Origin: Bacteroidetes bacterium UBA2322
Lineage (GTDB): Bacteria; Bacteroidota; Bacteroidia; Chitinophagales; UBA2359
Length of the DNA: 64,000 nt
Assembly (NCBI GenBank): GCA_002345145.1
Contig: DDVC01000073.1
Location: forward strand, 17,809 to 81,808
Direction of reading: 5' to 3'
Part shown: positions 16,498 through 64,000 of the stretch, in pieces
How positions within the stretch are numbered: position 1 is the stretch's first letter
Layout of the letters: each line of letters starts with the position of its first letter
Position numbers and translations under genes: made by a program
The notes under the pieces: model-generated
Databases searched by the model: none
What the model saw: only the letters and a program-made list of their open reading frames with translations
Told to the model about the DNA's origin: nothing

Positions 16498-18174
16498 ATG
16501 AAACTGAAAAAATATATCACCCTTTTTGCCGCACTGATAGCCCTGCTGGGCACCGCCACCCTTTCTTACTCATTTTGGGATAACGGAAGTAAATATTTTG
16601 AAATTGCCAAAAATATGAGCTTATATGCCGATTTATACCGTACCCTCGACGAAAATTACGTGGACAAAATAGAACCCGCCGGGCTAATGCGAAAAGGCAT
16701 TGACTCTATGCTAAAAACCCTTGACCCTTATACCAACTACATTACCGAAGCACAAATAGAGGGTTTCCGTATGCAGCGAACCGGCGCTGCCGGCAATATA
16801 GGGGCAGAACTGCTGCTTCGAGATAACTACGTTTACCTTGCCGCTATTTCGCAAAATCAGGCAGCTTTTAAAGCCGGACTCATGGCAGGCGATAAAATTG
16901 TGGCCATTAACGGCACCTCTGCCCAAAACCGCACCATTGAAGAAGTACAGCAAATACTGCAAGGACAGCCCGGCTCTGAGGTAAAAATTACCTACCTCCG
17001 CCCGGGTGCTGCCGAAGAAAAAACCGTTTCGGTAATCAGAGATAAAGAAGAGGGTAACAGTGTGCCTCATTTTGATATGGTTGATGCCAATACTGCTTAT
17101 ATTAAACATACCACCTTTACCCAAAATTGCAGCGGCGAGGTGGCGCAGGCATTAAAAGAACTCCAAAGCAAAAACGAGGTAAAAAACCTCATTTTAGATT
17201 TAAGGCAAAACGGAGGCGGTTTACTTACTGAATCCATCAACATGGTCAATCTGTTTGTGCCTTCCGGTCAGTTAGTGGTAAAAACCGCCGGTAAAACCGA
17301 AGAATGGCGCAAAGATTACAAAACCCAATCTGAGCCTATTGCACCCGGTTTGCCGTTGGTAATACTCATTGATGAGCGCTCTGCCTCCGCTTCCGAAATT
17401 GTATCGGGCACTATTCAGGATTTAGACCGAGGTGTAATTGTGGGCAAACAAAGTTTTGGCAAAGGATTGGTGCAGCAAACCAAAGACATAGGTTATAATG
17501 CCAAACTAAAACTAACGGTTTCTAAGTATTACATTCCCAGCGGACGCTGTGTGCAGGCAATAGATTACTCCGGAAAATACTTTGACGGAAAGTCTAACTT
17601 GCCCGATTCTTTGCGAAAAGCCTTTAAAACCCGAAATGGCAGAACCGTTTACGATGGCAGCGGCGTAGCGCCCGATGTAACGGTAGATAAACCCGAGCTA
17701 TCAAATATAACCAAAAGTTTGCAAGAAAATTTCCTGATTTTTGACTATGCCACACTATACCGACAAAAGCATGATAGCATTGCCCCGCCTACCAAGTTTG
17801 TTTTTACCGATGCCGATTTTGCCGACTTTGTACAGTTTATCTCCGATAAACAATACGAATATACTACCGAAAGCGAAAAACTGTTAGCCGAGCTGCTCAA
17901 AAGTGTAAAAGAGGAAAAGTATAGCGATAAAGTGGCAGAAGTAATCAGCAGGCTTAAAACAAAAATAAAGGAGGAAAAACAAAAAGACCTCCAAAAATTT
18001 AAGCCCGAAATTACAGAACTGCTCAAATTAGAAATCATTTCTCGATACTACTATCAAAAAGGCAAGGTACAAGCTACCTTAAACAACGACGAAAACATTA
18101 AAAAAGCCCTCGCCCTATTCAAAAACCCTGCCGAGTACGAAAAGATTCTAAAAGGCAGCGCCGGCGGCAAGTAA
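16498..18174 (+). CDS. S41 carboxyl-terminal protease, paralog 2
   Basis: LDPYT, ILDLRQNGGG, SASASEIVSG, SFGKG; collinear with paralog 1. Confidence 0.93.
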   Translation: MKLKKYITLFAALIALLGTATLSYSFWDNGSKYFEIAKNMSLYADLYRTLDENYVDKIEPAGLMRKGIDSMLKTLDPYTNYITEAQIEGFRMQRTGAAGNIGAELLLRDNYVYLAAISQNQAAFKAGLMAGDKIVAINGTSAQNRTIEEVQQILQGQPGSEVKITYLRPGAAEEKTVSVIRDKEEGNSVPHFDMVDANTAYIKHTTFTQNCSGEVAQALKELQSKNEVKNLILDLRQNGGGLLTESINMVNLFVPSGQLVVKTAGKTEEWRKDYKTQSEPIAPGLPLVILIDERSASASEIVSGTIQDLDRGVIVGKQSFGKGLVQQTKDIGYNAKLKLTVSKYYIPSGRCVQAIDYSGKYFDGKSNLPDSLRKAFKTRNGRTVYDGSGVAPDVTVDKPELSNITKSLQENFLIFDYATLYRQKHDSIAPPTKFVFTDADFADFVQFISDKQYEYTTESEKLLAELLKSVKEEKYSDKVAEVISRLKTKIKEEKQKDLQKFKPEITELLKLEIISRYYYQKGKVQATLNNDENIKKALALFKNPAEYEKILKGSAGGK

Positions 18175-52877: not shown

Positions 52878-53972
52878 TTAGAGTAAATGGGTTCTTAGTA
52901 CGCCTTTACCCAATGTGGTATTAGCGCCCAATTGAAAAACGTGGTTGAGTTGTTTGGCAAGGGTATCGGTTACAAACTCCTGCACTTCATTTGCGCTGAG
53001 GGTGGCTTTTTTACCGCGCTCATCGGTAAACATGGCAAGGCTGTATAAGATGCTCTCGGTAGGGAGGTATTCTTCGGTAAACAATGCGCCGGTGGCTACG
53101 GTACCGGTTTGGTTGTCTATTTTGGTACGGGTTACTACTTCGGTGCTGAGTTTTACAAAGTCTCTAAAATCGTCGTCGGACAGAATGACGAGGCGGTTTT
53201 TGAGCAGTAATTGCCAGTAGTTTTGTTCGGGTTGGGTAAATAGCATTTTGGCTAATGCACCGGCAAATTTATAGGCAAGGTCTTCGGTATCGGTTTTTAC
53301 CTCAAAAGCGTATTCCTCCAATACTATCGTTTTGTCGTTTATACCTATTTCGTTGGCATTGCTTGCCCTACATGCCTGCTGCCCAATGGCTAATTTAGGT
53401 ACTAAGGCGCTAAGGGTTTGTTTGAGTTCGTTATTAATGTTTGCAATTTTGAGTTCGTGTTCTAATTTTGCCAATACCGATTTGCAGGTTATCCACACAA
53501 AAACGCCTTTCATGCTCTTAACCGGAAACAGCAGCAAGCGCGCATCGGTAAGGGCAAGGCAGCCGGCAAATTCGTGTCCGTCTTTTGCCTTGTCATCACC
53601 GTCTTCTTTGTATTCTTTGTATTTGAAAAGTTTTTTCAGCCTGTTGGCGGTAGCTTTTTTCATACTGCCGTCGTCAAACCCAAAAACCCGATGCACTTTT
53701 ACATCGTTGGCTTCCCAAGAAGCAAAGGCTTTTGCTTTATTTTCATGCTCTTCTTCGGGTAATGCTTCATCGGTTCTTACGTTTTTAAACGTTTCGTAGG
53801 CGTGTTCAAAGGCTTCGCGCAGGGCGCCTTTTAGCGAGGAGCTTTCAATTTTGGGGAAATCGGTATGCCGCTCGCGCTGGATAGGGAGGTCAACAAACCC
53901 TAAGTCATCGCCGGTGCCGGCGTGCAGGGGTGTTTCGCAAATAAGAAACAGGGGGCGTGTAATTTGGTACAT
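52878..53972 (-). CDS. cmr4: Type III-B RAMP Cmr4 (intact, catalytic D28)
   Basis: [52 protein letters not shown]. Confidence 0.96.
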   Translation of the reverse strand: MYQITRPLFLICETPLHAGTGDDLGFVDLPIQRERHTDFPKIESSSLKGALREAFEHAYETFKNVRTDEALPEEEHENKAKAFASWEANDVKVHRVFGFDDGSMKKATANRLKKLFKYKEYKEDGDDKAKDGHEFAGCLALTDARLLLFPVKSMKGVFVWITCKSVLAKLEHELKIANINNELKQTLSALVPKLAIGQQACRASNANEIGINDKTIVLEEYAFEVKTDTEDLAYKFAGALAKMLFTQPEQNYWQLLLKNRLVILSDDDFRDFVKLSTEVVTRTKIDNQTGTVATGALFTEEYLPTESILYSLAMFTDERGKKATLSANEVQEFVTDTLAKQLNHVFQLGANTTLGKGVLRTHLL

Positions 53973-54053: not shown

Positions 54054-54651
54054 TTATTCTTGTTTTTGAGGTGGGTTAATACTCTCGTAAATTGGTAAAG
54101 CCCATTCGTTAATAGGCGCATAAGTTTTTTGAAGTAACCCATTACTTGCTCTGAAAAGTAGTGTTGCATCTGCATACTCAATGGAATTATCATACACATA
54201 TAATCTATCCACAAAAGAGGAAGCAAGGCAACAGTTAACAATAGATTTAGAAAAGCGACTAACAATTTTGGTTATTGGCACATCATGCCCACCCTCCATA
54301 ACTCTATGGGCAATACGGCTTGCATTAATAGATGGGTGATTAGTACCAACAAAAAATAAACGTATAAAAAAACCTGCTTCTTTTGCTCGGAGCATATACT
54401 CAACTTTATCAATTGCTGATAGCACAGTTTCAAAAATAAGGCTTTGTTTCAGTAAAAGACATTCTTCCCTTTGTTGTGCAGCAAGATTAGCCGCTTTTAG
54501 TACTGCCTCCGGAGAATTCCAATCGCCAAATTGCTCTTGCGCTATATTATCGGGATTTATATAAATACAGCCTTGTATCCATTCGTGTTTCAGGATTTGG
54601 GTGGTTATAGACGTTTTTCCCGAACCATTTGGACCTGCAATAACCAACAAC

Positions 54652-54671
<20 letters not shown>
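54054..54671 (-). CDS. Zeta-toxin-like P-loop kinase/ATPase
   Basis: IAGPNGSGKTS, YINPDNIA, FETVLS, RIAHRVMEGGHDVP, YVYDNS. Confidence 0.85.
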
Positions 54672-55111
<440 letters not shown>

Positions 55112-55125
55112 TTAATTTAAAAGCA

Positions 55126-55731
55126 TTAAATTATGTTTTTGTATTCGTTTATAATGGTTTGTAAAGCGCCTAAAACCATGTCTAATTGATTGATGAAATA
55201 CTTTTGTGTATCTATGGTAAAAGCGGAGTCTTCAAATTTAAGAAACATCCATTCATCGGCAGTGGTAACGCAGCCATACACAAAGGGAACCGGCTGGTTA
55301 TGCTTTTGGTTAAACAACCATGCACCATACATTTGTGCGGCGCATTGGTCAATACCCAATTCAAAGTCATTTTTTTTAGCTTCTATGAGGGTAAAAATTG
55401 GATAGCTGATGGTAAATGACTGGGTGTTTTTGGCTAAAATAAAATCACATTCTCCGGTTAGTCCGGCGTTTTTGTCTGCTTCAAGCATATCGCCGGAGTA
55501 GATGGTGAAAAAATCATCATTTTGCTGTTTGAGTTCTAATAAAACAGGAGCTACAATCATTTCTGATTTTGCTTTTTCGCTTTTAATAGGATTTTTTCTG
55601 CTCATGGCAAGCGTATCTTTTAGCCAGTTGCTGTATGGCAGTGGCGCTACATGGGTAAAAAGGGGTTTATAGTAGGCTGCTAAGCCAAATTGCTCTTTTA
55701 GGCGCAGCAGGGTAAATTGTTTGTAAGACAT
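55126..55731 (-). CDS. PD-(D/E)xK-fold protein, HsdR-N-like family
   Basis: E..I.P.L, GECDFIL, IEAKK, QCAAQM, YGCVTT..W.FL. Confidence 0.65.
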   Translation of the reverse strand: MSYKQFTLLRLKEQFGLAAYYKPLFTHVAPLPYSNWLKDTLAMSRKNPIKSEKAKSEMIVAPVLLELKQQNDDFFTIYSGDMLEADKNAGLTGECDFILAKNTQSFTISYPIFTLIEAKKNDFELGIDQCAAQMYGAWLFNQKHNQPVPFVYGCVTTADEWMFLKFEDSAFTIDTQKYFINQLDMVLGALQTIINEYKNII

Positions 55732-55747
55732 GGGATTAAACTGAGTT

Positions 55748-57211
55748 TTATCGGGTTAAACGCTCCCAAGTGAAATCATTCCATTGTATAGTTTCGAAAT
55801 CAAATTGTTTTACTCTATCCGGGGTTATTTGCCAGTTTACATTATGTTTGTAATTATCGGGCGGTTGTACCCATAGCCAAACTAAATGTGAACAGGCAGA
55901 AATGTTAATTTGTTTCAATTCTTTAAATGCTGCCTCTTGGAATCGGTTAGGTTGGCGGTGGTGGTACATTGCCACAATACATTTTATTGCCCTTTGCCGC
56001 TCGTTGGCGTATGCCAGCGATGCTTGAAAAGCGCCTTGCCTGCATTTTCTCTCAATAGTATCACCATTTCCAAGTATTTTTACCTTCTCAGGCTTTACTT
56101 CTATGGATAGAATAAATTGGTCATTTTCTACCCACACATCGGCATCGTAAGCATCTCCTTGGGGTGATATACCAATTGGTTTTTCCAATATTGTTTTATC
56201 GGGAAATTTATTGGCAAAGAACTGAAATACTTTTAGCTCCATTACCTTGCCTACTAAATTGCCTATATCAATATCGTTGCTTCGGATGTTATTGTGGTAG
56301 GCAGCAAACAATAATTTACCTAATGCAGATAGGCTTATGCGCTTGGTATTTTCGCTGCCCGTTTCAATTTCAATGATTAAACCAGAATTGTCAATACTCC
56401 CAAAATCTGCTTGTTCTGCTAAATTATCTTTGAATACCTCGGGTGTAGGGAGGTTGTATAATGCCTTCTCGGGTTTAAGTAATTCAAATGCTAAGTAGTT
56501 ATCCTCAAAAATACTATAATCAAACGCCACCGGCAGTTTTTCTAAGCCTATAATTTGTCCTTCTTTGTTATCTTGGTGGGTGTAGCGGAGGGGGTAGTCG
56601 TAAATTTGCCCCATAATGGTGAGGATAGGAATGGTGGCTTTATAACCGCCCGATATGTTTAGTAGGGGTTTATCGGTACCGGCTATGGCGTTTATGGCGG
56701 TAAGCAGGTTAGAGAAGCCGGTGGTTTGGAATTTTTGAGGGTCTTTTACCTGTAAATCGGGTATGGGCAATATAAACGCATCGGGATATGCCGATTGATA
56801 TATGCTGCGTTGTTGCCAAATTGTGCCTAATTCGCCGGTATTGACCGCAGCGGCTATTTGTATTCGTTTGGCGGTTTCATCGCCGTCTTCTTTCTTAAAA
56901 TTGAGCCATGCTATAATGAGTTCGCAGGCTATAACGGCGGTAACGGTATCGGTGGCAAGGAGGTACACTTGCAGCGTTTCGGCAGGTTTTTCTTTGGCTA
57001 TTTCATAAAGGGTGTGAATTTCGGCACATACTTCTTGGTCGGTTTTGGGAAAAAGTTGGTTGCTTTGATTGTCTTGATTGCGAAATCTTTCAATTTCTGG
57101 CTGAATGCGCTCATTATCCCAATCAGACAGCAATGCATCTTTGCTGTTTGGAAACTGACCTTGATAATTTTGTGTTAAGATGGAAATGCCTACTGTGGTA
57201 ATCACTTTCAT
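55748..57211 (-). CDS. CARF (APE2256-type) fused to a PD-(D/E)xK nuclease; putative cOA effector
   Basis: TTVGIS, CAEI, ATDT, LQVKDPQKF, NISGGYK; C-terminal E...DAD...EVK. Confidence 0.8.
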   Translation of the reverse strand: MKVITTVGISILTQNYQGQFPNSKDALLSDWDNERIQPEIERFRNQDNQSNQLFPKTDQEVCAEIHTLYEIAKEKPAETLQVYLLATDTVTAVIACELIIAWLNFKKEDGDETAKRIQIAAAVNTGELGTIWQQRSIYQSAYPDAFILPIPDLQVKDPQKFQTTGFSNLLTAINAIAGTDKPLLNISGGYKATIPILTIMGQIYDYPLRYTHQDNKEGQIIGLEKLPVAFDYSIFEDNYLAFELLKPEKALYNLPTPEVFKDNLAEQADFGSIDNSGLIIEIETGSENTKRISLSALGKLLFAAYHNNIRSNDIDIGNLVGKVMELKVFQFFANKFPDKTILEKPIGISPQGDAYDADVWVENDQFILSIEVKPEKVKILGNGDTIERKCRQGAFQASLAYANERQRAIKCIVAMYHHRQPNRFQEAAFKELKQINISACSHLVWLWVQPPDNYKHNVNWQITPDRVKQFDFETIQWNDFTWERLTR

Positions 57212-57224
57212 AACTGCCCGATGT

Positions 57225-58301
57225 TTAAATTTTACCCACCATTGCCAAGCCGTAACCCTCGTTTGGCAGGTAGTCTGATATGGTTTTACAATGCAATAAC
57301 TCCTTTACCGCTTCAATAGTTCCGGCTACCAAGCGGAAGTAATAAACCGACCCGGCAGGCACTGTGCGGCACATGGTTTTGGGTTGTTGCTCTTTAAGGT
57401 CAAAACCACCTATGGGCAGGGGTTTACCCAGCGCTGTGCCGGTGAGTTGCAAGGTTATTTTGCGGTCGCCGTTTCCTATTTCGCCAATGTAGTCATTTTC
57501 GGGTTTAATCCATGCGGGCAGCCAGCCTTGTGCAAAAATGGCGGGTGTAGCAAGGTAGAGTTTAAACAGGGTATCGGTTGGGGCAAGCGTAAAGGGTATT
57601 TGTGCGCTTACTGTTTTGTTGGGTTCTACGCTGAAATGGGCTAATTTGCTATCGGCGCCCAGTTTGGCAATGCTAAGCCATTTGTGAGGAAAATCGGGCA
57701 GTTCTACTACAATTTGGGTTTTATTACTGAGGCGCTTCATATCCACCCGATAGAGTTTACCCTCATCGGTGGCAAAGGTGAGGTTATCTCTGCCAATGCC
57801 AATTTTAGGTTCCGAAACAAAGTACTTAGCGTTGGGCGATATTTTTGCTACATCGGTGGCTTTTAAATAGTCTTCAAGGTCAAACAGGGTAATGATGCCT
57901 TTGCTTTTTTCATTGTCCACCACAAAATCGGGGTAGGTTATTTGGGTAAGCGGTTTATTGCTCACTATGCCGGCTGCGGCAGCGTTGCGAGGCTGGAGTA
58001 TGGTTTTCTGGGGATTGTTTTCCGTTTTTTCTATTGCAAAGTCATTGGGGGCGGTTACACAATAACCGCTTTCTGTTTGAAGGTATATGCCCGATATGGT
58101 GATGTGTTTGGTTGCTTCTTCCAAAGCCAATTTATCGGCAGTGGCAAAATTGGTATTGCCCAAAAACAGGGTGCGGATAGCGCCGTAAATAACGGAGGGC
58201 GAAGGCGGAAAAAGGCTGTCTGCCCACGAGTCGTCGCCCATAGAAAAGGGTTTGCCATCGCGAAAAAAGAGGGTATCAAAAGGGTTAATTTTAATAAGCA
58301 T
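57225..58301 (-). CDS. cmr3: Type III-B RAMP Cmr3 (Cas5 group)
   Basis: PFDTLFFRDGKPF, PPSPSVIYGAIR, KIGIGR, LYLATP, IGGFD, VPAGSVY, EGYG. Confidence 0.95.
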   Translation of the reverse strand: MLIKINPFDTLFFRDGKPFSMGDDSWADSLFPPSPSVIYGAIRTLFLGNTNFATADKLALEEATKHITISGIYLQTESGYCVTAPNDFAIEKTENNPQKTILQPRNAAAAGIVSNKPLTQITYPDFVVDNEKSKGIITLFDLEDYLKATDVAKISPNAKYFVSEPKIGIGRDNLTFATDEGKLYRVDMKRLSNKTQIVVELPDFPHKWLSIAKLGADSKLAHFSVEPNKTVSAQIPFTLAPTDTLFKLYLATPAIFAQGWLPAWIKPENDYIGEIGNGDRKITLQLTGTALGKPLPIGGFDLKEQQPKTMCRTVPAGSVYYFRLVAGTIEAVKELLHCKTISDYLPNEGYGLAMVGKI

Positions 58302-60141
58302 GGGCGGCAGTTTTTTCGGGTTGATTGGTTTGGCGTTTGATGTAGTTGGCTATGTTGAGGGCTTCTAAGAAAAATTCCAAAGTTTGGGCGTTGGTTAAAA
58401 GTTTATTGAGTGCGTTAAACATGGCATCAAAATCGGCATTTTTGAGGTCGGATTTTTTAGAACGTTCTAATAGGCGTTGCATTTCTAATCGGATAAAATT
58501 GGAATTTTCAATTTGGTTAATAAAATCTTTCACTTCTATAAACAGCGCCAGCTCCCGATTTAAAGACCGGATAAAAGTATCGGAAAAGTTATCTTGCTGC
58601 AATTGCTGTGTTATGGTTTGCAGGTGGGGTAGTTGTTCCCATTTAAAGCAGGTTTGGTGCGTTTCGCCCGATTTTTTGAGTACGCCTATGGCAAAAGCGT
58701 TTCTATCGCCATCTTCTTTGGCTTTGTCTTGCAGGCGGCGGGCTTCGTTGAGGGCAATACCCATAGGCGAGCCGTAATGGGCAATGGCAATGCCGGCAGA
58801 AAAGGTAAAGTTGAAACCGGGTTTGAGTACATCGGTAAAGGTTTGTTGGAGTGGGCTGTTTACGGTGCGGTGAAACTCGCCCTGCACCTGTAAAAGTACG
58901 TCGTACAGGTGATTGAGGTTGATGAGGGCAAGGCAATCATCGCCGCCGGCATAAATAACTCTACCCTTGGGGAAGGTGATGATTTTTTCTACCGATTTGG
59001 CAAATTGGGTAAGCAATCGGGAGGTTTCCTTTTGAAAATTGTGGAGGTATTGGTTGCACTTATCGGGTTTAAGGAAGTTGCCGGTCATGATTTTACCCAT
59101 GCTATCGCCGTCAAAGGTTAAAACGGCATAGTATTTTTTTAGCCTGCTTGCGGGCAGTTTCTGCACATGCTGGCGCACACAGCTTAGCGCTCCTTCGGGC
59201 AATCCTTGTTGTTCAAAAAACTTGGGGGTGAGGTTTTCTTCGTAAAAAACTTGCCCGTTAATTTCATCGGCAAAACGCAAAAGATTGTTGTTCACCTCTG
59301 CTTTTTCTCCAAGACACAGTCCAATAGGTTGTAAGTGAGATATAAACTTACCGGTATCATCGCACCAGTTAAACAAATCGTACAAAGCTATATTGGCAGT
59401 GGATGGGAATATCAGATTTTTATGCTTATACCAGCGTTTAAGGAAGGAAACAGTGCTAAGCCCTTCGCCGGCTTGGAGGAGTTTGTGGGTGCGGTCGTCG
59501 TTGTCTTTGGGTTGGTTATCCCAGAGACAAACTTGGTTGGGTTGGGTAAACAGTTTTTTATCCAGCAGTCGGGCGGTATCGGTTTCATCTTTGGTTTTCC
59601 GATATACTTTTACATTTCGCTCGCCGTCTAAGTTGCATTTTCGCCCTTTTTCGGGCAGTTGGGTAAAGGTGCGTATGTTTTTAAGTCCGCCAAAAATTCT
59701 TTCGGCGGTTTGGTAGTTGTGGGCGTAAGTTTCGGGCGTATAGGGTTTAAAGAACCAGGTAATTTCTAAATGGCTGTTGATTTGGTCAAAGTAGGCTTTT
59801 TGGTCAAAATTGGGCGGGGCTTGCATGAATTTGAGGGCATCATGGGCAAGGTTGGTAAAGAGGTTGCGCACGGCATTTTCTATGGTTTGCCCTATGGTGG
59901 CAAGGTCTTCATTTCCGTTATAGATACCGGCAAATTGGTTGGGTATGTTTTGCCCGTTGTTGTTGTCGGTTTGTTGGGGGTAAGTGATGTCTATACCTTG
60001 CGCTTTGGCGGCTTGAATGGCTTTGTCTGCCAACGCCGATAATAAACGACTGCCTCCAAAAAGGTCTTGGGCTTTTCGGGCTTGGGCTATAAAGGTTTGT
60101 ACCGGACCTACCGAGAATATGAAAATGTGGTTAGAACTCAT
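58291..60141 (-). CDS. cas10: Type III-B Cas10/Cmr2, HD-less, intact Palm cyclase
   Basis: SVGPVQTFIAQARK.QDL..GS.LLS, IPNQF, FDGDSMG, YAGGDD, FSAGIAIAH; start MSSNH (60141). Confidence 0.96.
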   Translation of the reverse strand: MSSNHIFIFSVGPVQTFIAQARKAQDLFGGSRLLSALADKAIQAAKAQGIDITYPQQTDNNNGQNIPNQFAGIYNGNEDLATIGQTIENAVRNLFTNLAHDALKFMQAPPNFDQKAYFDQINSHLEITWFFKPYTPETYAHNYQTAERIFGGLKNIRTFTQLPEKGRKCNLDGERNVKVYRKTKDETDTARLLDKKLFTQPNQVCLWDNQPKDNDDRTHKLLQAGEGLSTVSFLKRWYKHKNLIFPSTANIALYDLFNWCDDTGKFISHLQPIGLCLGEKAEVNNNLLRFADEINGQVFYEENLTPKFFEQQGLPEGALSCVRQHVQKLPASRLKKYYAVLTFDGDSMGKIMTGNFLKPDKCNQYLHNFQKETSRLLTQFAKSVEKIITFPKGRVIYAGGDDCLALINLNHLYDVLLQVQGEFHRTVNSPLQQTFTDVLKPGFNFTFSAGIAIAHYGSPMGIALNEARRLQDKAKEDGDRNAFAIGVLKKSGETHQTCFKWEQLPHLQTITQQLQQDNFSDTFIRSLNRELALFIEVKDFINQIENSNFIRLEMQRLLERSKKSDLKNADFDAMFNALNKLLTNAQTLEFFLEALNIANYIKRQTNQPEKTAAHAY

Positions 60142-60202: not shown

Positions 60203-60838
60203 TCAAATGAGGTTTTTGATGTTTTGTAAGATGGTAAAAACAAGGGCGAGTTTGTCAAACTCGGTTACGTTGTAGTTGGTGGTATTTTGGTATTGTTTAC
60301 CCTGCAAAGCTACAAAATACCAGTCTTTACCTACTATATAACAACCATACAATACCCTGTTTTTGTTGGTATTGAGGTGTTGTGCGGTAATCATGGCAGC
60401 CAGCAGTTGCCCAAGCGGGTCGGCATCGGTGCCTTGTTCTTTTTTGTACTCATGTAAAAAGAAGAAAGGCTCGCGCGGTATTTGTTTACCCGATGCCAGC
60501 ATCCACTCCACCACGCCCGAAAGTTCTATTTCGGGGGTTTGGAGTTGCATGATGCGCTGCGAAAAAGGTTGGTACCTATCGCTTTCATAATAATCTACCA
60601 AAAATAGAAAGGGCGAAATAAACTGCATTTTCAATTCATCTTCGTTCCAGTCTAAGAATTTGCGGCTAATGAGTTTGTGTAGTTTTTCCAACTCTTCTTG
60701 TACCGATGCGGGTACATGGGGTTGTACTTGGGTTAAGGTTTGCAAGGGTGTAAAATAAGGCTGTGCGGTTTCCAATCTTTCTAAGCCAAACCAAATGGTG
60801 AGGTCTTCCCAAAGGCATTTTTCAAAGGTTTTTTTCAT
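60203..60838 (-). CDS. PD-(D/E)xK-fold protein, HsdR-N-like family (second, divergent)
   Basis: WNEDELKMQFISP, LSGVVEW, HEYKK, GQLLAAM..AQ.LN, YGCYIVGKDWYF. Confidence 0.6.
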   Translation of the reverse strand: MKKTFEKCLWEDLTIWFGLERLETAQPYFTPLQTLTQVQPHVPASVQEELEKLHKLISRKFLDWNEDELKMQFISPFLFLVDYYESDRYQPFSQRIMQLQTPEIELSGVVEWMLASGKQIPREPFFFLHEYKKEQGTDADPLGQLLAAMITAQHLNTNKNRVLYGCYIVGKDWYFVALQGKQYQNTTNYNVTEFDKLALVFTILQNIKNLI

Positions 60839-60877: not shown

Positions 60878-61222
60878 TTATTGCGAGTTGGGGGTTGTTA
60901 TATTTTTATCGGGATAAAGCCATTTTACCTGCGCAAGTTTGTCTTTAAACATTTGCATAATAGCTTCTTCCCAATCGTTGGTAGTGGGCAGGTAGGGAAT
61001 AATGGCTTTTAGCATTTCTTTTCGGTATTCGTTGGCGCGGAGGCGGTCTATGTTTATTTGCGGAAGGTAAGTTTTCACCTCTTCAAAATCGTAGTTAATT
61101 AAATCCGGAAAACTGGCATACTCAATCAGCCGCTTCAGCCTAAAAGTGGGCGAAAGCGTATCGGGGTCAATGCCTGTGGAGGCTCCGGTATCCCAAAAGT
61201 ATTTAAGAAATCGTTTTTGCAT
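60878..61222 (-). CDS. Small protein, DUF6922-like
   Basis: KYFWD...D...RL.EY...D pattern; overlaps the HNH stop by 20 nt. Confidence 0.45.
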   Translation of the reverse strand: MQKRFLKYFWDTGASTGIDPDTLSPTFRLKRLIEYASFPDLINYDFEEVKTYLPQINIDRLRANEYRKEMLKAIIPYLPTTNDWEEAIMQMFKDKLAQVKWLYPDKNITTPNSQ

Positions 61223-62003
61223 GGTGGAGGATGAATTTTAAAAAGAAAATAACTATATTGCAAAATGGTTCAAATTTCAACTCACTATCCTCATCATCGC
61301 GGTGCAACTGCATGTAGTGGTCTAAATATAATTTGGCTTCATCTCTATCCAAATCTATTATGCCTGTTTCTGTGATGCCCGGAAATGCCTCTTCCAGAAC
61401 AAGCGCTCTTGATTTTATCAATTGTTGATGATTTAAGCGCAATTGTTTTATGGTAAATGCTGCGTTTTGATTGCCATTTGATTCAAATATATTCCCTGAA
61501 AAATCATAAACAAATGATTTTTCACATGTAAATACCTCTTCACTTTCCTTTTCAAGTGGGTCAATAATTCTGACAAATATTCCGTTTTCCTCAATTATTT
61601 CTAATATATCATCTTTTGCATCACCGCAATGCTTCGGTTTTATTTGCTCTCCGTCATCACCCACCTCTATTCCGCTACAACAAACAAATAAGTTATTGTA
61701 ATCAAACATATTTTCGGGGGATTTGCTTCTAGGGTTATAATGCTCAATAATAACACTTTTATCATTTGTTAGTGGTTTGCAACAATAACAACATATAAAG
61801 CCCTGTTCTTGTAGCAGCGCTAAACGCAAATTCTTTTTCTCAAAGCAATACCCAAACTCATTTATGATGCGAGTTCTGGTATCTTCATCGTTAATGTCTC
61901 TTAACCTATTCCATGAGTAAGAGGTAGTGCCGGTAAGTTTTTCATAGTCCGCTACCCAGCGGATAAAATTGGGTGGTGGTTGGTTTTTGATTATTCCTTT
62001 CAT
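61203..62003 (-). CDS. HNH endonuclease, PtuB/retron-associated (TIGR02646-like)
   Basis: LLQEQGFICCYC, IEHYNP, YNNLFVCC, HCGDAK. Confidence 0.85.
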   Translation of the reverse strand: MKGIIKNQPPPNFIRWVADYEKLTGTTSYSWNRLRDINDEDTRTRIINEFGYCFEKKNLRLALLQEQGFICCYCCKPLTNDKSVIIEHYNPRSKSPENMFDYNNLFVCCSGIEVGDDGEQIKPKHCGDAKDDILEIIEENGIFVRIIDPLEKESEEVFTCEKSFVYDFSGNIFESNGNQNAAFTIKQLRLNHQQLIKSRALVLEEAFPGITETGIIDLDRDEAKLYLDHYMQLHRDDEDSELKFEPFCNIVIFFLKFILHHAKTIS

Positions 62004-62006
62004 CTT

Positions 62007-63680
62007 TTACCTTCCAATTAGCTGTTTGCGCTTAATAAGCCCATCGGCACGTGCAAAAACGATTTCTTCTTTGCCTATTTTCCTTTCTAATACTTCTCTC
62101 AGTAGTGCAGCCTCTTTCCACCGCTCTTGTGCAATTAATCTGGAATAAGTAAGAAGATTTGTTTCTATTTCTTTGTTTCGTGTTGGTGTATTCATTAGTG
62201 GTAAAATATCACTAATGTCTTTGCCGTAGGTATATTGTTCAACTGTTTTTATAACACCAGCATCAAGTATTTTTATCTGCCTATTATGTACTTCTCCTAA
62301 AATGTGTGGACTATGCGTAGTTACCACAAACTGTAATTTCGGGAAGATTTCTTTTAATTTAGATAATACTTTTCGCTGCCATAGTGGGTGCAGGTGTTGG
62401 TCTATTTCGTCAATCAATACAATGCCCTTACCCTCTTTGAGTGGGTTAATTTCATAATTAGGATTAGCTGCAATAATACGGCGAACAAGGTCGGCAACTA
62501 AGGCAAAAAGGGCTTTTTCGCCCGATGACATCTGAGAGAAGGAGATGGTTTCCGTTTTGTTGTCGTAGGTCAGTTTGTCAAAGGCAAACTCTTTTGATTT
62601 GTAATCAAGCCTAAAATTGCTGTAGCGTTTGTCGTCGTCATTCAGCATGTCAAGCACGGCATTGTTTAACAGGTCAAGTTCTTCATCTAAAGATTTTCCT
62701 TGTACCACTAAATCAAGTTTATTTTTGTGGGTTTCTTGTTCTGTTTTTACATTTTCGAATGTAGCAGAACTTTCTACAAAGGCGGCTTCGGCATTTTGTA
62801 TTCTCTGCTTCAGTGTTTTTAACTCGTTAGTTAGGTCTTTAAATTCTACAGTGCCGGTTTGTTTGTTTTTTCTGAGTTGCGCTATTTTATCCGTTACTAT
62901 TTCTTCATCAAGCTTTAGCGCTGTTACCTCACCTTCTTGTTTGGCTTTTTGGGCTCCTATGTTTTTTAGTTCCTGTTCCAATGCTGCTATATCGTCTTGA
63001 AACTTTTTTATTTTTGTATCTTTTTCTTGCAAGGCTAATCTTTGTTTTTCATCGTACCATTGGTAAAGTTGGTTAAAACTAAATCTTTCGGGTTCTAAGG
63101 CATTGGCATAAACAGCATCTATTCGGGATTTTACCTTTGCATTGCCGGCTGCTTGTGGTCTATTAAAAGCATTTCTGCCGTAATACACCAAGATAGGTAG
63201 GTTTTCTTTCTTTCTGAGAACATTGGTTGCTATTCTATATCCTTCTATGGTAATGCTATCGGCAATGTTGCCTTGCGCATATTTAACTTCTGTTCCACCA
63301 TTGTCATTAAGGTTTAACTCCCAAAAACAATTTGCATTGTGAATTGGTCTATCATCTTCCTCCTCGACTTCATCGGTATTGTTAGTTTTGGATTTATTCA
63401 ATTCGGTATATGGATACTCCATATTTACCACAAGCCGGCAAGATGCCGCATGTAGCCCATTTTTAACATCGGTTGATTTGAATTTAGTTTCATATTTTTG
63501 CCTAACGAGGGCATATTGGTAAAAAAAGCGCAAACACTCGGCAGTAGCATCTAATATGGTAGATTTTCCGCCGCCGTTTTCCGAAATAAAGATGGTGATA
63601 TCGGGGTCAAACGTTACTTCCAAATTGCCAAATCCTCTGAAGTTTTCTAAGTGCAGCGCTTCTAATCTGAGGTCGAACAT
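62007..63680 (-). CDS. ABC/AAA ATPase, PtuA-like, with coiled-coil insertion
   Basis: LENFRGF, SENGGGKST, MSSGEK, VLIDEIDQHLHPLWQ, TTHSPH. Confidence 0.88.
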   Translation of the reverse strand: MFDLRLEALHLENFRGFGNLEVTFDPDITIFISENGGGKSTILDATAECLRFFYQYALVRQKYETKFKSTDVKNGLHAASCRLVVNMEYPYTELNKSKTNNTDEVEEEDDRPIHNANCFWELNLNDNGGTEVKYAQGNIADSITIEGYRIATNVLRKKENLPILVYYGRNAFNRPQAAGNAKVKSRIDAVYANALEPERFSFNQLYQWYDEKQRLALQEKDTKIKKFQDDIAALEQELKNIGAQKAKQEGEVTALKLDEEIVTDKIAQLRKNKQTGTVEFKDLTNELKTLKQRIQNAEAAFVESSATFENVKTEQETHKNKLDLVVQGKSLDEELDLLNNAVLDMLNDDDKRYSNFRLDYKSKEFAFDKLTYDNKTETISFSQMSSGEKALFALVADLVRRIIAANPNYEINPLKEGKGIVLIDEIDQHLHPLWQRKVLSKLKEIFPKLQFVVTTHSPHILGEVHNRQIKILDAGVIKTVEQYTYGKDISDILPLMNTPTRNKEIETNLLTYSRLIAQERWKEAALLREVLERKIGKEEIVFARADGLIKRKQLIGR

Positions 63681-63685
63681 GGTGT

Positions 63686-64000
63686 TTAATTTAAAACATT
63701 ATTCCTAAAATCCTCTTGCAAGGAGAGGCTGATTTTATTGCGGTCTCTATCGGGTATGGTGTTGAGGGTGGCGGTGATGATGCGGTTTTGGTTGCCCACT
63801 TGGGTAAGCGAGGCAATTACCGGCGAGGCAAACCGCCCTCTGTTGGCATGACCAAGGCTGGGTTCATAAGTTGAGCCATTTTTCTGTTTCAGTTGGTGGG
63901 TAACCCTGCCTATTTTTTTGGTCAAAACTTCCCAATTGGTATTACCCGTTTGGCTTAGGTGCAGCAAGCGCAAATAAGGGTAACTTGCCGTGCCGCCGCT
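63686..64000 (-). CDS. cmr1: Probable Cmr1 C-terminus (5' part outside window)
   Basis: Open to the window edge; LGHANRGRFASPV motif; position upstream of cmr2 in the same operon. Confidence 0.7.
   Translation of the reverse strand, partial: SGGTASYPYLRLLHLSQTGNTNWEVLTKKIGRVTHQLKQKNGSTYEPSLGHANRGRFASPVIASLTQVGNQNRIITATLNTIPDRDRNKISLSLQEDFRNNVLN

Follow-up and report, generated by a model that had tools for sequence, protein, structure and literature searches.

Why does a two-gene pair of the Septu kind lie inside a type III CRISPR operon, and does it work there with the CRISPR complex or only beside it? The question is raised by a 64,000-nucleotide (nt) stretch of contig DDVC01000073.1 from Bacteroidetes bacterium UBA2322 (positions 17,809 to 81,808; G000:C49:17809-81808), referred to here as the window, in which an ATPase gene (ptuA) and an HNH endonuclease gene (ptuB) stand between cmr1 and cas10/cmr2 of a type III-B operon. 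A sequence-only reading of the window had described a Septu/PtuAB-like pair directly behind cmr1 and had raised the possibility that the Cmr complex, its CRISPR RNA (crRNA), or cyclic oligoadenylate (cOA) replaces the retron that governs such pairs elsewhere. On balance, we favor the view that the pair represents a PtuAB lineage dedicated to type III CRISPR rather than a stray stand-alone Septu, and that it is coupled to its host system via the complex. The occurrence of PtuAB in type III operons points to a recruitment of the nuclease by CRISPR complexes much like that carried out by retrons.

Identity of the PtuAB pair

The identities proposed for cmr1, the ATPase gene, and the HNH gene were borne out by matches in PADLOC, Pfam, NCBIfam, and the PDB. 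The ptuA gene (62007..63680, on the minus strand, as are all genes of the operon) starts with ATG and encodes an ABC/SMC-type ATPase of 557 amino acids (aa), with matches to PADLOC PtuA (best, 4.4e-91), to Pfam AAA_15, AAA_21, AAA_23, and SMC_N, and to the solved PtuA chains of retrons Ec78 and Ec83 and of Septu (1e-31 to 1e-37). The ptuB gene (61203..62003), likewise with an ATG start, encodes a 266-aa HNH endonuclease that matches PADLOC PtuB (1.5e-39), TIGR02646 (60.6 bits; cut-off, 52.15), and solved PtuB chains (PDB 8ee7, 9e-5). Motifs are intact in both proteins: Walker A K39, Walker B D424-E425, the signature S385-G387-E388, and H-loop H456 in PtuA, all invariant in the clade alignment, and C71-x2-C74, IEH88, and N103 in PtuB. 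PtuA further contains a coiled-coil-like insertion at approximately aa 215-340 (62661..63038; NCBIfam SMC coiled-coil matches at aa 217-341), the residues of which are present in the clade alignment only in the window protein, P0004, and P0001, that is, in the window's close clade. The spacings of 5 nt between the cmr1 stop codon and ptuA and of 3 nt between ptuA and ptuB had been read exactly.

A neighboring reverse transcriptase (RT) or retron was considered and rejected. As the sequence-only reading had noted for the part in view, no RT is present, either within 16 kilobases (kb) upstream or anywhere on the contig; the sole RVT_1 match in the genome, a 343-aa open reading frame (ORF) at G000:C106:6312-6896, is unlinked to either PtuAB locus. 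Rfam gave no match in the window or upstream of it, and no RT was found among the called genes of related Cmr-PtuAB loci. Retron equivalog cut-offs were not reached by either protein (266.3 against 500 for PtuA with NF041760 and 79.7 against 150 for PtuB with NF041761). Judged by these comparisons, the pair is PtuAB, but not of the retron type.

Recurrence in type III operons

Relatives of the window PtuA were searched for among 5.8 billion proteins, and the contig contexts of the nearest ones were examined. The arrangement cmr1-ptuA-ptuB-(variable inserts)-cas10-cmr3-CARF-cmr4-5-6 was found at about 17 divergent loci. Close relatives (L004-L013) share the order cmr1-ptuA-ptuB-...-cmr2, and the complete order through cmr3-CARF-cmr4-5-6 is found with 89%-identical PtuAs from two lineages, one of them in a different chromosomal neighborhood. 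It is also found at L007 (PtuA 58% identical) in a "clean" form without PD-(D/E)xK and zeta cassettes. The more distant PtuA hits P0009, P0012, P0024, P0072, P0008, P0039, and P0023, with 37-49% identity across the C-terminal third, are likewise encoded between cmr1 and cmr2 in every case (loci L047-L050, L052, L054, and L055). P0008 (L052) belongs to the cultured Rapidithrix thailandica, while the contig of P0023 bears flagellar rod genes and is thus taken to come from outside the non-flagellated Bacteroidota.

Three further samples added to these loci. A Cas10 search in 401 genomes of the same order as the source genome yielded 14 further Cmr loci, 4 of which carry PtuAB at the same place: one on contig C136 of the source genome itself, two in G185, and one in G268, both of these being genomes of the same family. 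In nine other Cmr loci of these genomes, cmr1 is followed directly by cmr2, with no PtuAB. The C136 locus (L041 12602-16774, minus strand) is an intact second III-B operon with the order cmr1a-ptuA-ptuB-cmr1b-PD-DExK-cmr2 and a PtuA 34% identical to that of the window; a third Cmr locus of the source genome, on C194, has no PtuAB. A metagenome scan added 80 PtuA loci, many of the loci being metagenomic without an assigned taxonomy; four were Cmr-embedded (L056, L075, L077, and L126), one was type III-A, fifteen were restriction-embedded, and the rest were other or unresolved. At L056 (2629-9975) two tandem PtuAB pairs lie between cmr1 and cmr2, and L068 (2-8048) is a type III-A operon, csm1-csm2-csm3-csm4-csm5-ptuA-ptuB, with no CARF gene recognized downstream of ptuAB. 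A phylum-wide sample of 401 genomes contributed one further Cmr-embedded case (L157). Type III-embedded PtuAB thus has a frequency of about 0.5-1% of genomes in the samples examined. A pattern scan of the genome collection with the close-clade PtuA alignment, whose patterns were too specific, returned only one other species genome.

The position of the pair is highly regular. The 3' end of the crRNA is capped by Cmr1 in type III-B complexes and by Csm5 in type III-A complexes, and PtuA follows the gene for the cap subunit in both subtypes. Among 16 loci with cmr1 (or csm5)-ptuA-ptuB, the gap before ptuA was between -4 and +14 nt in all 16, and that between ptuA and ptuB was at most 10 nt everywhere except at L045 (82 nt). 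No cassette insertion was seen within this trio in the loci examined; the inserts, which are often found directly 3' of ptuB and again after the CARF gene, include genes for AbiEii (together with its small partner), Fic, HEPN-MNT, PD-(D/E)xK, and zeta toxin.

Phylogeny of PtuA, Cmr1, and Cas10

An IQ-TREE phylogeny was built from 50 PtuAs of known context (18 type III, 17 restriction-operon, and 15 other); FastTree versions were also made. All 18 type III-context PtuAs, that of the window included, formed one bipartition with a support of 100/99, recovered in 100% of bootstraps, and the 17 restriction-operon and 15 other-context proteins, stand-alone PtuAs included, fell outside it. All 13 contexts sampled from a 49-member PtuA clade were Cmr, and no member of the type III clade was found outside type III operons among the sampled contexts, an exclusivity based on about 18 such contexts and on trees that contain long branches. 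The search for ptuAB within type III operons across genomes that the sequence-only reading had proposed is clearly positive. Because a dedicated PtuAB clade occupies Cmr/Csm operons in every sampled context, it seems more likely that the pair is functionally linked to the type III complex than that the two lie together by chance.

The partner in this link was not foreseen by the earlier reading: the comparative data point to Cmr1. PtuAB-bearing and PtuAB-less loci are intermingled in the Cas10 phylogeny; no fewer than 4 changes are required by well-supported branches, and a single PtuAB clade is rejected at a cost of 101 log-likelihood units (approximately unbiased [AU] test, p=6e-5). The 13 Cmr1s encoded directly before PtuA, on the other hand, group together, with a support of 91/88 when one very long branch is omitted; with that branch included, a single Cmr1 clade is not rejected (AU p=0.46). 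Cmr1 proteins of PtuAB-less loci fall mostly in another deep clade, with which the extra downstream cmr1 copies of C136-type loci also group. Since PtuA-adjacent Cmr1s cluster whereas the accompanying Cas10s do not, cmr1-ptuA-ptuB appears to move as one module onto different cmr2-6 backbones; loci of the form cmr1-ptuAB-cmr1 would be intermediates of such a transfer.

Selection and exchange of the nuclease arm

Within an allele type, ratios of nonsynonymous to synonymous substitution (dN/dS) were 0.07-0.41 for ptuA and 0.13-0.16 for ptuB, against 0.11-0.27 for the cmr genes, and ptuA and ptuB are thus under purifying selection like the cmr genes. The lineage is dedicated, selected, operon encoded, and coinherited with the gene for the cap subunit.

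One part of the pair has a history of its own. The Cmr proteins of the window are 93-97% identical to those of its closest relative, L011, and nucleotide identity between the two loci is 93% up to position 62307, absent at 62306-61230, and 96% from 61229 onward; the breakpoints against L005 are the same. The diverged piece (61230..62306, from about codon 459 of ptuA) comprises approximately 100 C-terminal PtuA residues and nearly all of ptuB. In this nuclease arm, PtuB of the window shares 71% identity with its counterpart in the distant L007 and only 28-31% with those in L005 and L011, and synonymous divergence (dS) rises from 0.15 to 2.7 at the exchanged piece. Two allele types of the arm coexist within the genus. 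In Ec78, PtuA residues 457-550, which follow the ATPase core, form the interface with PtuB (PMC13376987). Because the diverged PtuA tail corresponds to this PtuB-binding region, the whole nuclease arm can be regarded as the exchanged unit. Read from these breakpoints, the PtuA C-terminal tail and ptuB were swapped together, as one cassette, between closely related operons, whereas the ATPase core remained linked to cmr1; the nuclease arm can evidently be replaced without touching that core.

Other genes of the operon

The operon runs on the minus strand in the order cmr1, ptuA, ptuB, orfS, a PD-(D/E)xK gene, cas10/cmr2, cmr3, a CARF (APE2256-type) effector gene, a second PD-(D/E)xK gene, a cmr4 5' fragment, a small ORF and a zeta-toxin-like kinase gene, cmr4, cmr5, and cmr6. 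The window holds the 3' part of cmr1 (63686..64000; the last 104 codons, with the stop codon included at 63686), and the contig was read beyond the window end to obtain the whole gene (295 aa; window-equivalent start, 64573; L002 2495-3382), which matches TIGR01894 (56.7 bits; cut-off, 28.65) and Pfam RAMPs. On its 5' side are approximately 290 nt of noncoding sequence, followed by an unrelated lipase-like gene with a terminator-like hairpin and, farther out, by housekeeping genes, from which we conclude that the operon begins at cmr1. A scan for sigma-70 promoters and terminators gave counts at chance level with a consensus ill-suited to the host phylum.

All six genes, cmr1, cas10/cmr2, and cmr3 to cmr6, lie in this one operon and score above their NCBIfam/Pfam cut-offs, constituting a III-B interference module. 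For cas10/cmr2 (58291..60141; TIGR02577, 137.6 bits; Cas10-Cmr2_palm2 and Cmr2_N), the likely start is the ATG at 60141, as relatives begin MSSNHIF; the longest ORF begins farther 5', at a TTG at position 60258. The GGDD cyclase motif is found at aa 438 of the long ORF; no HD domain or motif was detected in the protein, which begins at Cmr2_N. Because Cas10 proteins without an HD domain are known, the module is still classed as type III-B. The same combination, GGDD kept and HD absent, was seen in every PtuAB-bearing locus examined. The idea that PtuAB is a mere substitute for the lost HD domain is unsupported as the sole reason for its presence, as PtuAB-less relatives lack HD too. The other members of the module are cmr3 (57225..58301; Pfam Cas_Cmr3, 3.7e-47), cmr4 (53972-52878; TIGR02580, 236.9 bits), cmr5 (52855-52472; TIGR01881, 55.4 bits), and cmr6 (52460-51273; TIGR01898, 134.3 bits). 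Between cmr3 and cmr4 lies the 487-aa CARF effector gene (55748..57211; Pfam Cas_APE2256, 1.8e-14; PADLOC CARF7/CARF_RelE, 1e-42), which gene maps show to be kept in nearly all related loci.

The 211-aa PD-(D/E)xK family gene upstream of cas10 (60203..60838; PADLOC PD_DExK, 1.9e-13) is a variable insert, present in L011 and in the second locus of the source genome (51% identity) and absent from L005 and L007. A second block of variable inserts (54054..55731) lies between the CARF gene and cmr4 and contains another PD-(D/E)xK gene (55731-55126; PADLOC PD_DExK, 3.4e-46), the cmr4 5' fragment (55096-54827; an 89-aa ORF 98% identical to the Cmr4 N terminus), the small ORF orf103 (54963-54652), and the zeta-toxin-like kinase gene (54701-54054; Pfam Zeta_toxin, 1.2e-10). 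The zeta-toxin cassette is bracketed by duplicated cmr4 5' ends (54827-55096 and 53849-53972), a layout reminiscent of the C136 locus, where ptuAB is flanked by two copies of cmr1.

The orfS gene (60878..61222; 114 aa) overlaps the end of ptuB by 20 nt and, at 83-97% identity among close relatives, encodes the best-conserved protein of the close clade. It had no Pfam, NCBIfam, or PADLOC match, and its AlphaFold2 model (predicted local distance difference test score, 58) was too poor for a fold search. A role for orfS as a third Septu/Cmr component was rejected: its family directly follows AbiEii genes on the 3' side in three independent loci (L005, L048, and L055) and is absent from most PtuAB-Cmr loci. 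Being of the same family as the small AbiEii partner, orfS is no part of the PtuAB-Cmr relationship and is probably the orphan partner of a lost AbiEii-type cassette.

No CRISPR array was found in the window or in 19 kb upstream, nor near any of the three Cmr loci examined. The only clear array in the assembly (G000:C175 1-600; L003) lies at a contig end beside non-cas genes and has at least 8 copies of the 37-nt repeat GTAAATCACCCAATTCCATTATAGCGAGGATTGCGAC. Several related loci have a cas6 gene (L055) or a cas6b gene (L050, L052, and L054) immediately before cmr1; in the source genome, an orphan cas6b was placed by the sequence-only reading about 40 kb away.

Relation to known systems

The pair shares with Septu its two-gene composition of an ABC ATPase and an HNH protein, the same domain order, and the same motifs, and it matches the solved PtuA (8ee4) and PtuB (8ee7). 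It differs from Septu in being embedded between cmr1 and cas10 with no visible promoter region of its own, in the separate PtuA clade seen only in type III operons, and in the approximately 125-aa coiled-coil insertion. Type I-A retrons (Ec78/Ec83, Retron-Septu) offer a parallel, as there too PtuAB has been co-opted, within one operon, by another immune module based on nucleic acids. Retron PtuA and PtuB are the best matches of the window pair in the PDB and NCBIfam, and docking of PtuB by the PtuA C-terminal region is a feature of Ec78 (PMC13376987). The window locus, however, has no RT or msr/msd, falls below the equivalog cut-offs, and has cmr1-6 as partners. PtuAB nested in restriction operons (hsdM-hsdS-ptuA-ptuB-hsdR) is the same kind of pair inside another defense operon, although the PtuA clades, the host system, and the insertion site are all different.

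Two kinds of type III accessory genes also bear comparison. Archaeal ABC/SMC-type ATPases with a small partner gene (Cas_RecF+RFas; ABC ATPase+sRRM; cluster 17 of Shah et al. 2018) are linked specifically to type III modules and have coevolved with them (PMC3973734, PMC6546367). These are crenarchaeal, however, and their small partners, of RRM type or not characterized, are not HNH nucleases; the pairs are not PtuA/PtuB. Effectors activated by cOA (Csm6/Csx1, Can1/Can2, and Cami1-type CARF proteins) resemble PtuAB in being accessory nucleases encoded in type III operons, and the L068 pair sits after csm5, the usual place of csm6. Unlike them, PtuA and PtuB have no CARF or SAVED domain, and a separate CARF effector is kept in nearly all these Cmr loci.

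A full-text search, in which coverage of subscription journals is limited so that an earlier report is possible, found no prior report linking Septu/PtuAB with type III, Cmr, or Cas10. The type III accessory-gene catalogues checked list archaeal ABC ATPases with small partners and a Sulfolobales HNH protein (Csx26), and no PtuA/PtuB pair. What appears to be new is therefore not the effector pair, which is known, but its specific partnership.

Proposed role and alternatives

Most likely, the pair serves as an accessory nuclease arm coupled to an HD-less Cmr complex through Cmr1. This functional coupling to the type III ribonucleoprotein, like the trigger that would act on it, is what we infer from the comparisons above. 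In the mechanism that we propose, PtuA oligomers carrying PtuB would dock on the cap subunit of the crRNA 3' end (Cmr1 or Csm5) and be kept inactive there, as the RT and multicopy single-stranded DNA (RT-msDNA) of a retron keep retron PtuAB inactive. An event at the ribonucleoprotein would switch PtuAB on or release it, and the activated HNH nuclease would cut DNA or transfer RNA (tRNA). The outcome would be a second, cOA-independent effector arm, beside the CARF effector, for an HD-less but cyclase-competent Cas10 complex. Both halves of this proposal have precedents. Retrons have taken over PtuAB, which they sequester on RT-msDNA until infection sets it free (PMC12819146, PMC12948488), and Csm5 is known to enlist two non-Cas nucleases, RNase R and PNPase, and to stimulate them (PMC9762709). 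That PtuAB is docked on the cap subunit and controlled by the crRNA-guided complex, whether by target-RNA activation or by release on attack, is put forward tentatively, as a reasonable possibility. As to the trigger within this coupled model, target-RNA binding is our first choice and may be the answer, although we would not call it probable; release when the complex is attacked or inhibited, as in a guard, comes second and is rather unlikely, and ATP drain by Cas10 is a weaker option still.

Several observations weigh against a coupling through the complex. Distance correlations (Mantel) of PtuA with Cmr1, Cmr2, and Cmr3 are alike (r, 0.54-0.65) and give no support specific to Cmr1. PtuAB-less related Cmr loci, also without HD, presumably work, and PtuAB is thus optional. 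Neither CARF, SAVED, nor another known cOA sensor was recognized in the pair, Pfam reporting only ABC ATPase domains in PtuA and nothing in PtuB. At L045 (G268:C5, 8318-13390), cmr1 and cmr2 are fragmented beside an intact ptuA (476 aa) and an intact ptuB (211 aa), a pattern that hints at autonomous PtuAB function or at decayed Cmr genes, unless it stems from misassembly of the metagenome-assembled genome. Finally, PtuAB may simply tend to lodge in defense operons, since PtuA clades other than this one are found within type I restriction operons. P0028 and P0073, from another PtuA branch, lie in hsdM-hsdS-ptuA-ptuB-hsdR operons, and such pairs, mostly between hsdS and hsdR, were found on many unrelated contigs (L051, L053, L062, L070, L076, L084, L090, L096, L105, L117, L119, and L160), one of them a Burkholderia cepacia genome.

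These points lead to the main rival explanation, which we regard as somewhat unlikely: PtuAB would be an independent Septu passenger, an autonomous system that merely uses the cmr promoter and whose clade would seem CRISPR-specific only because a single old insertion was coinherited with the cmr loci. PtuAB is a self-sufficient defense elsewhere (PMC12819146), the same operons gather other autonomous cassettes (AbiEii, HEPN-MNT, Fic, and zeta toxin), and the restriction-nested clades, the sister loci without PtuAB, and the intact pair at L045 would all be expected of a passenger. It is harder to explain in this way why the pair always keeps its place beside the cap-subunit gene, in two type III subtypes and down to PtuA identities of about 30-40%, why no sampled clade member lies outside a type III operon, and why the Cmr1 type tracks the presence of PtuAB and not the Cas10 phylogeny. 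The trio, moreover, is never interrupted, whereas the other cassettes vary in place and presence.

In a guard arrangement, the resting Cmr ribonucleoprotein would sequester PtuAB, and its inhibition or degradation by a phage would free the pair to kill or arrest the cell; by analogy with other systems this is conceivable, but we consider it unlikely. PrrC, a nuclease masked by its host type I restriction enzyme (EcoprrI), is the classical precedent, restriction-nested PtuAB clades suggest a general guard habit, and an arms race would be in keeping with the way in which the nuclease arm is swapped as a cassette. Activation by target binding, however, fits the comparative data equally well, and we know of no anti-CRISPR for the hosts of these loci. 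Retrons Ec83 and Ec78 provide analogues, in which PtuAB is kept inactive and is let go upon disassembly (PMC12948488, PMC12819146).

A purely metabolic coupling, in which heavy ATP consumption by the Cas10 cyclase upon target recognition would lower ATP and so relieve the inhibition of PtuAB without physical contact, is improbable. It would draw on the findings that nicking by stand-alone PtuAB drops as ATP rises and that the activation model proposed for Septu involves reduced ATP (PMC12819146), and the GGDD motif is kept in all linked Cas10s. Under such a coupling, however, the strict adjacency to cmr1/csm5 and the cosegregation with Cmr1 type are unexplained, any Septu in the genome would respond alike, and it is doubtful that Cas10 could lower cellular ATP enough. 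A function in crRNA biogenesis, in which the cap subunit would recruit PtuAB to trim crRNA 3' ends as Csm5 recruits RNase R and PNPase for crRNA maturation (PMC9762709), would suit the constant place of ptuA after the cap-subunit gene but is very improbable, as the HNH protein PtuB is reported to cut DNA and tRNA and not to trim RNA 3' ends (PMC12819146, PMC13376987), PtuAB-less sister loci mature crRNA anyway, and freed PtuAB is toxic in other systems.

Implications

PtuAB has so far been described as the free-standing Septu and as an effector sequestered by retrons. If a CRISPR ribonucleoprotein is indeed a third partner, this ATPase-nuclease module would be a general plug-in effector for nucleic-acid-based sensors. 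How modules of this kind diversify is illustrated by the cassette-like swapping of its nuclease arm. With Cmr1 and Csm5 as the linked cap subunits, there is a concrete, testable interface, and reconstitution is feasible given a cultured carrier, R. thailandica, and compact, clean operons (L007 and L054). If true, the coupling proposed here would extend the accessory nucleases of type III systems by a new class, one that lacks a cyclic-oligoadenylate sensor, and would give HD-less Cas10 systems an RNA-guided, cOA-independent ATPase-HNH effector arm.

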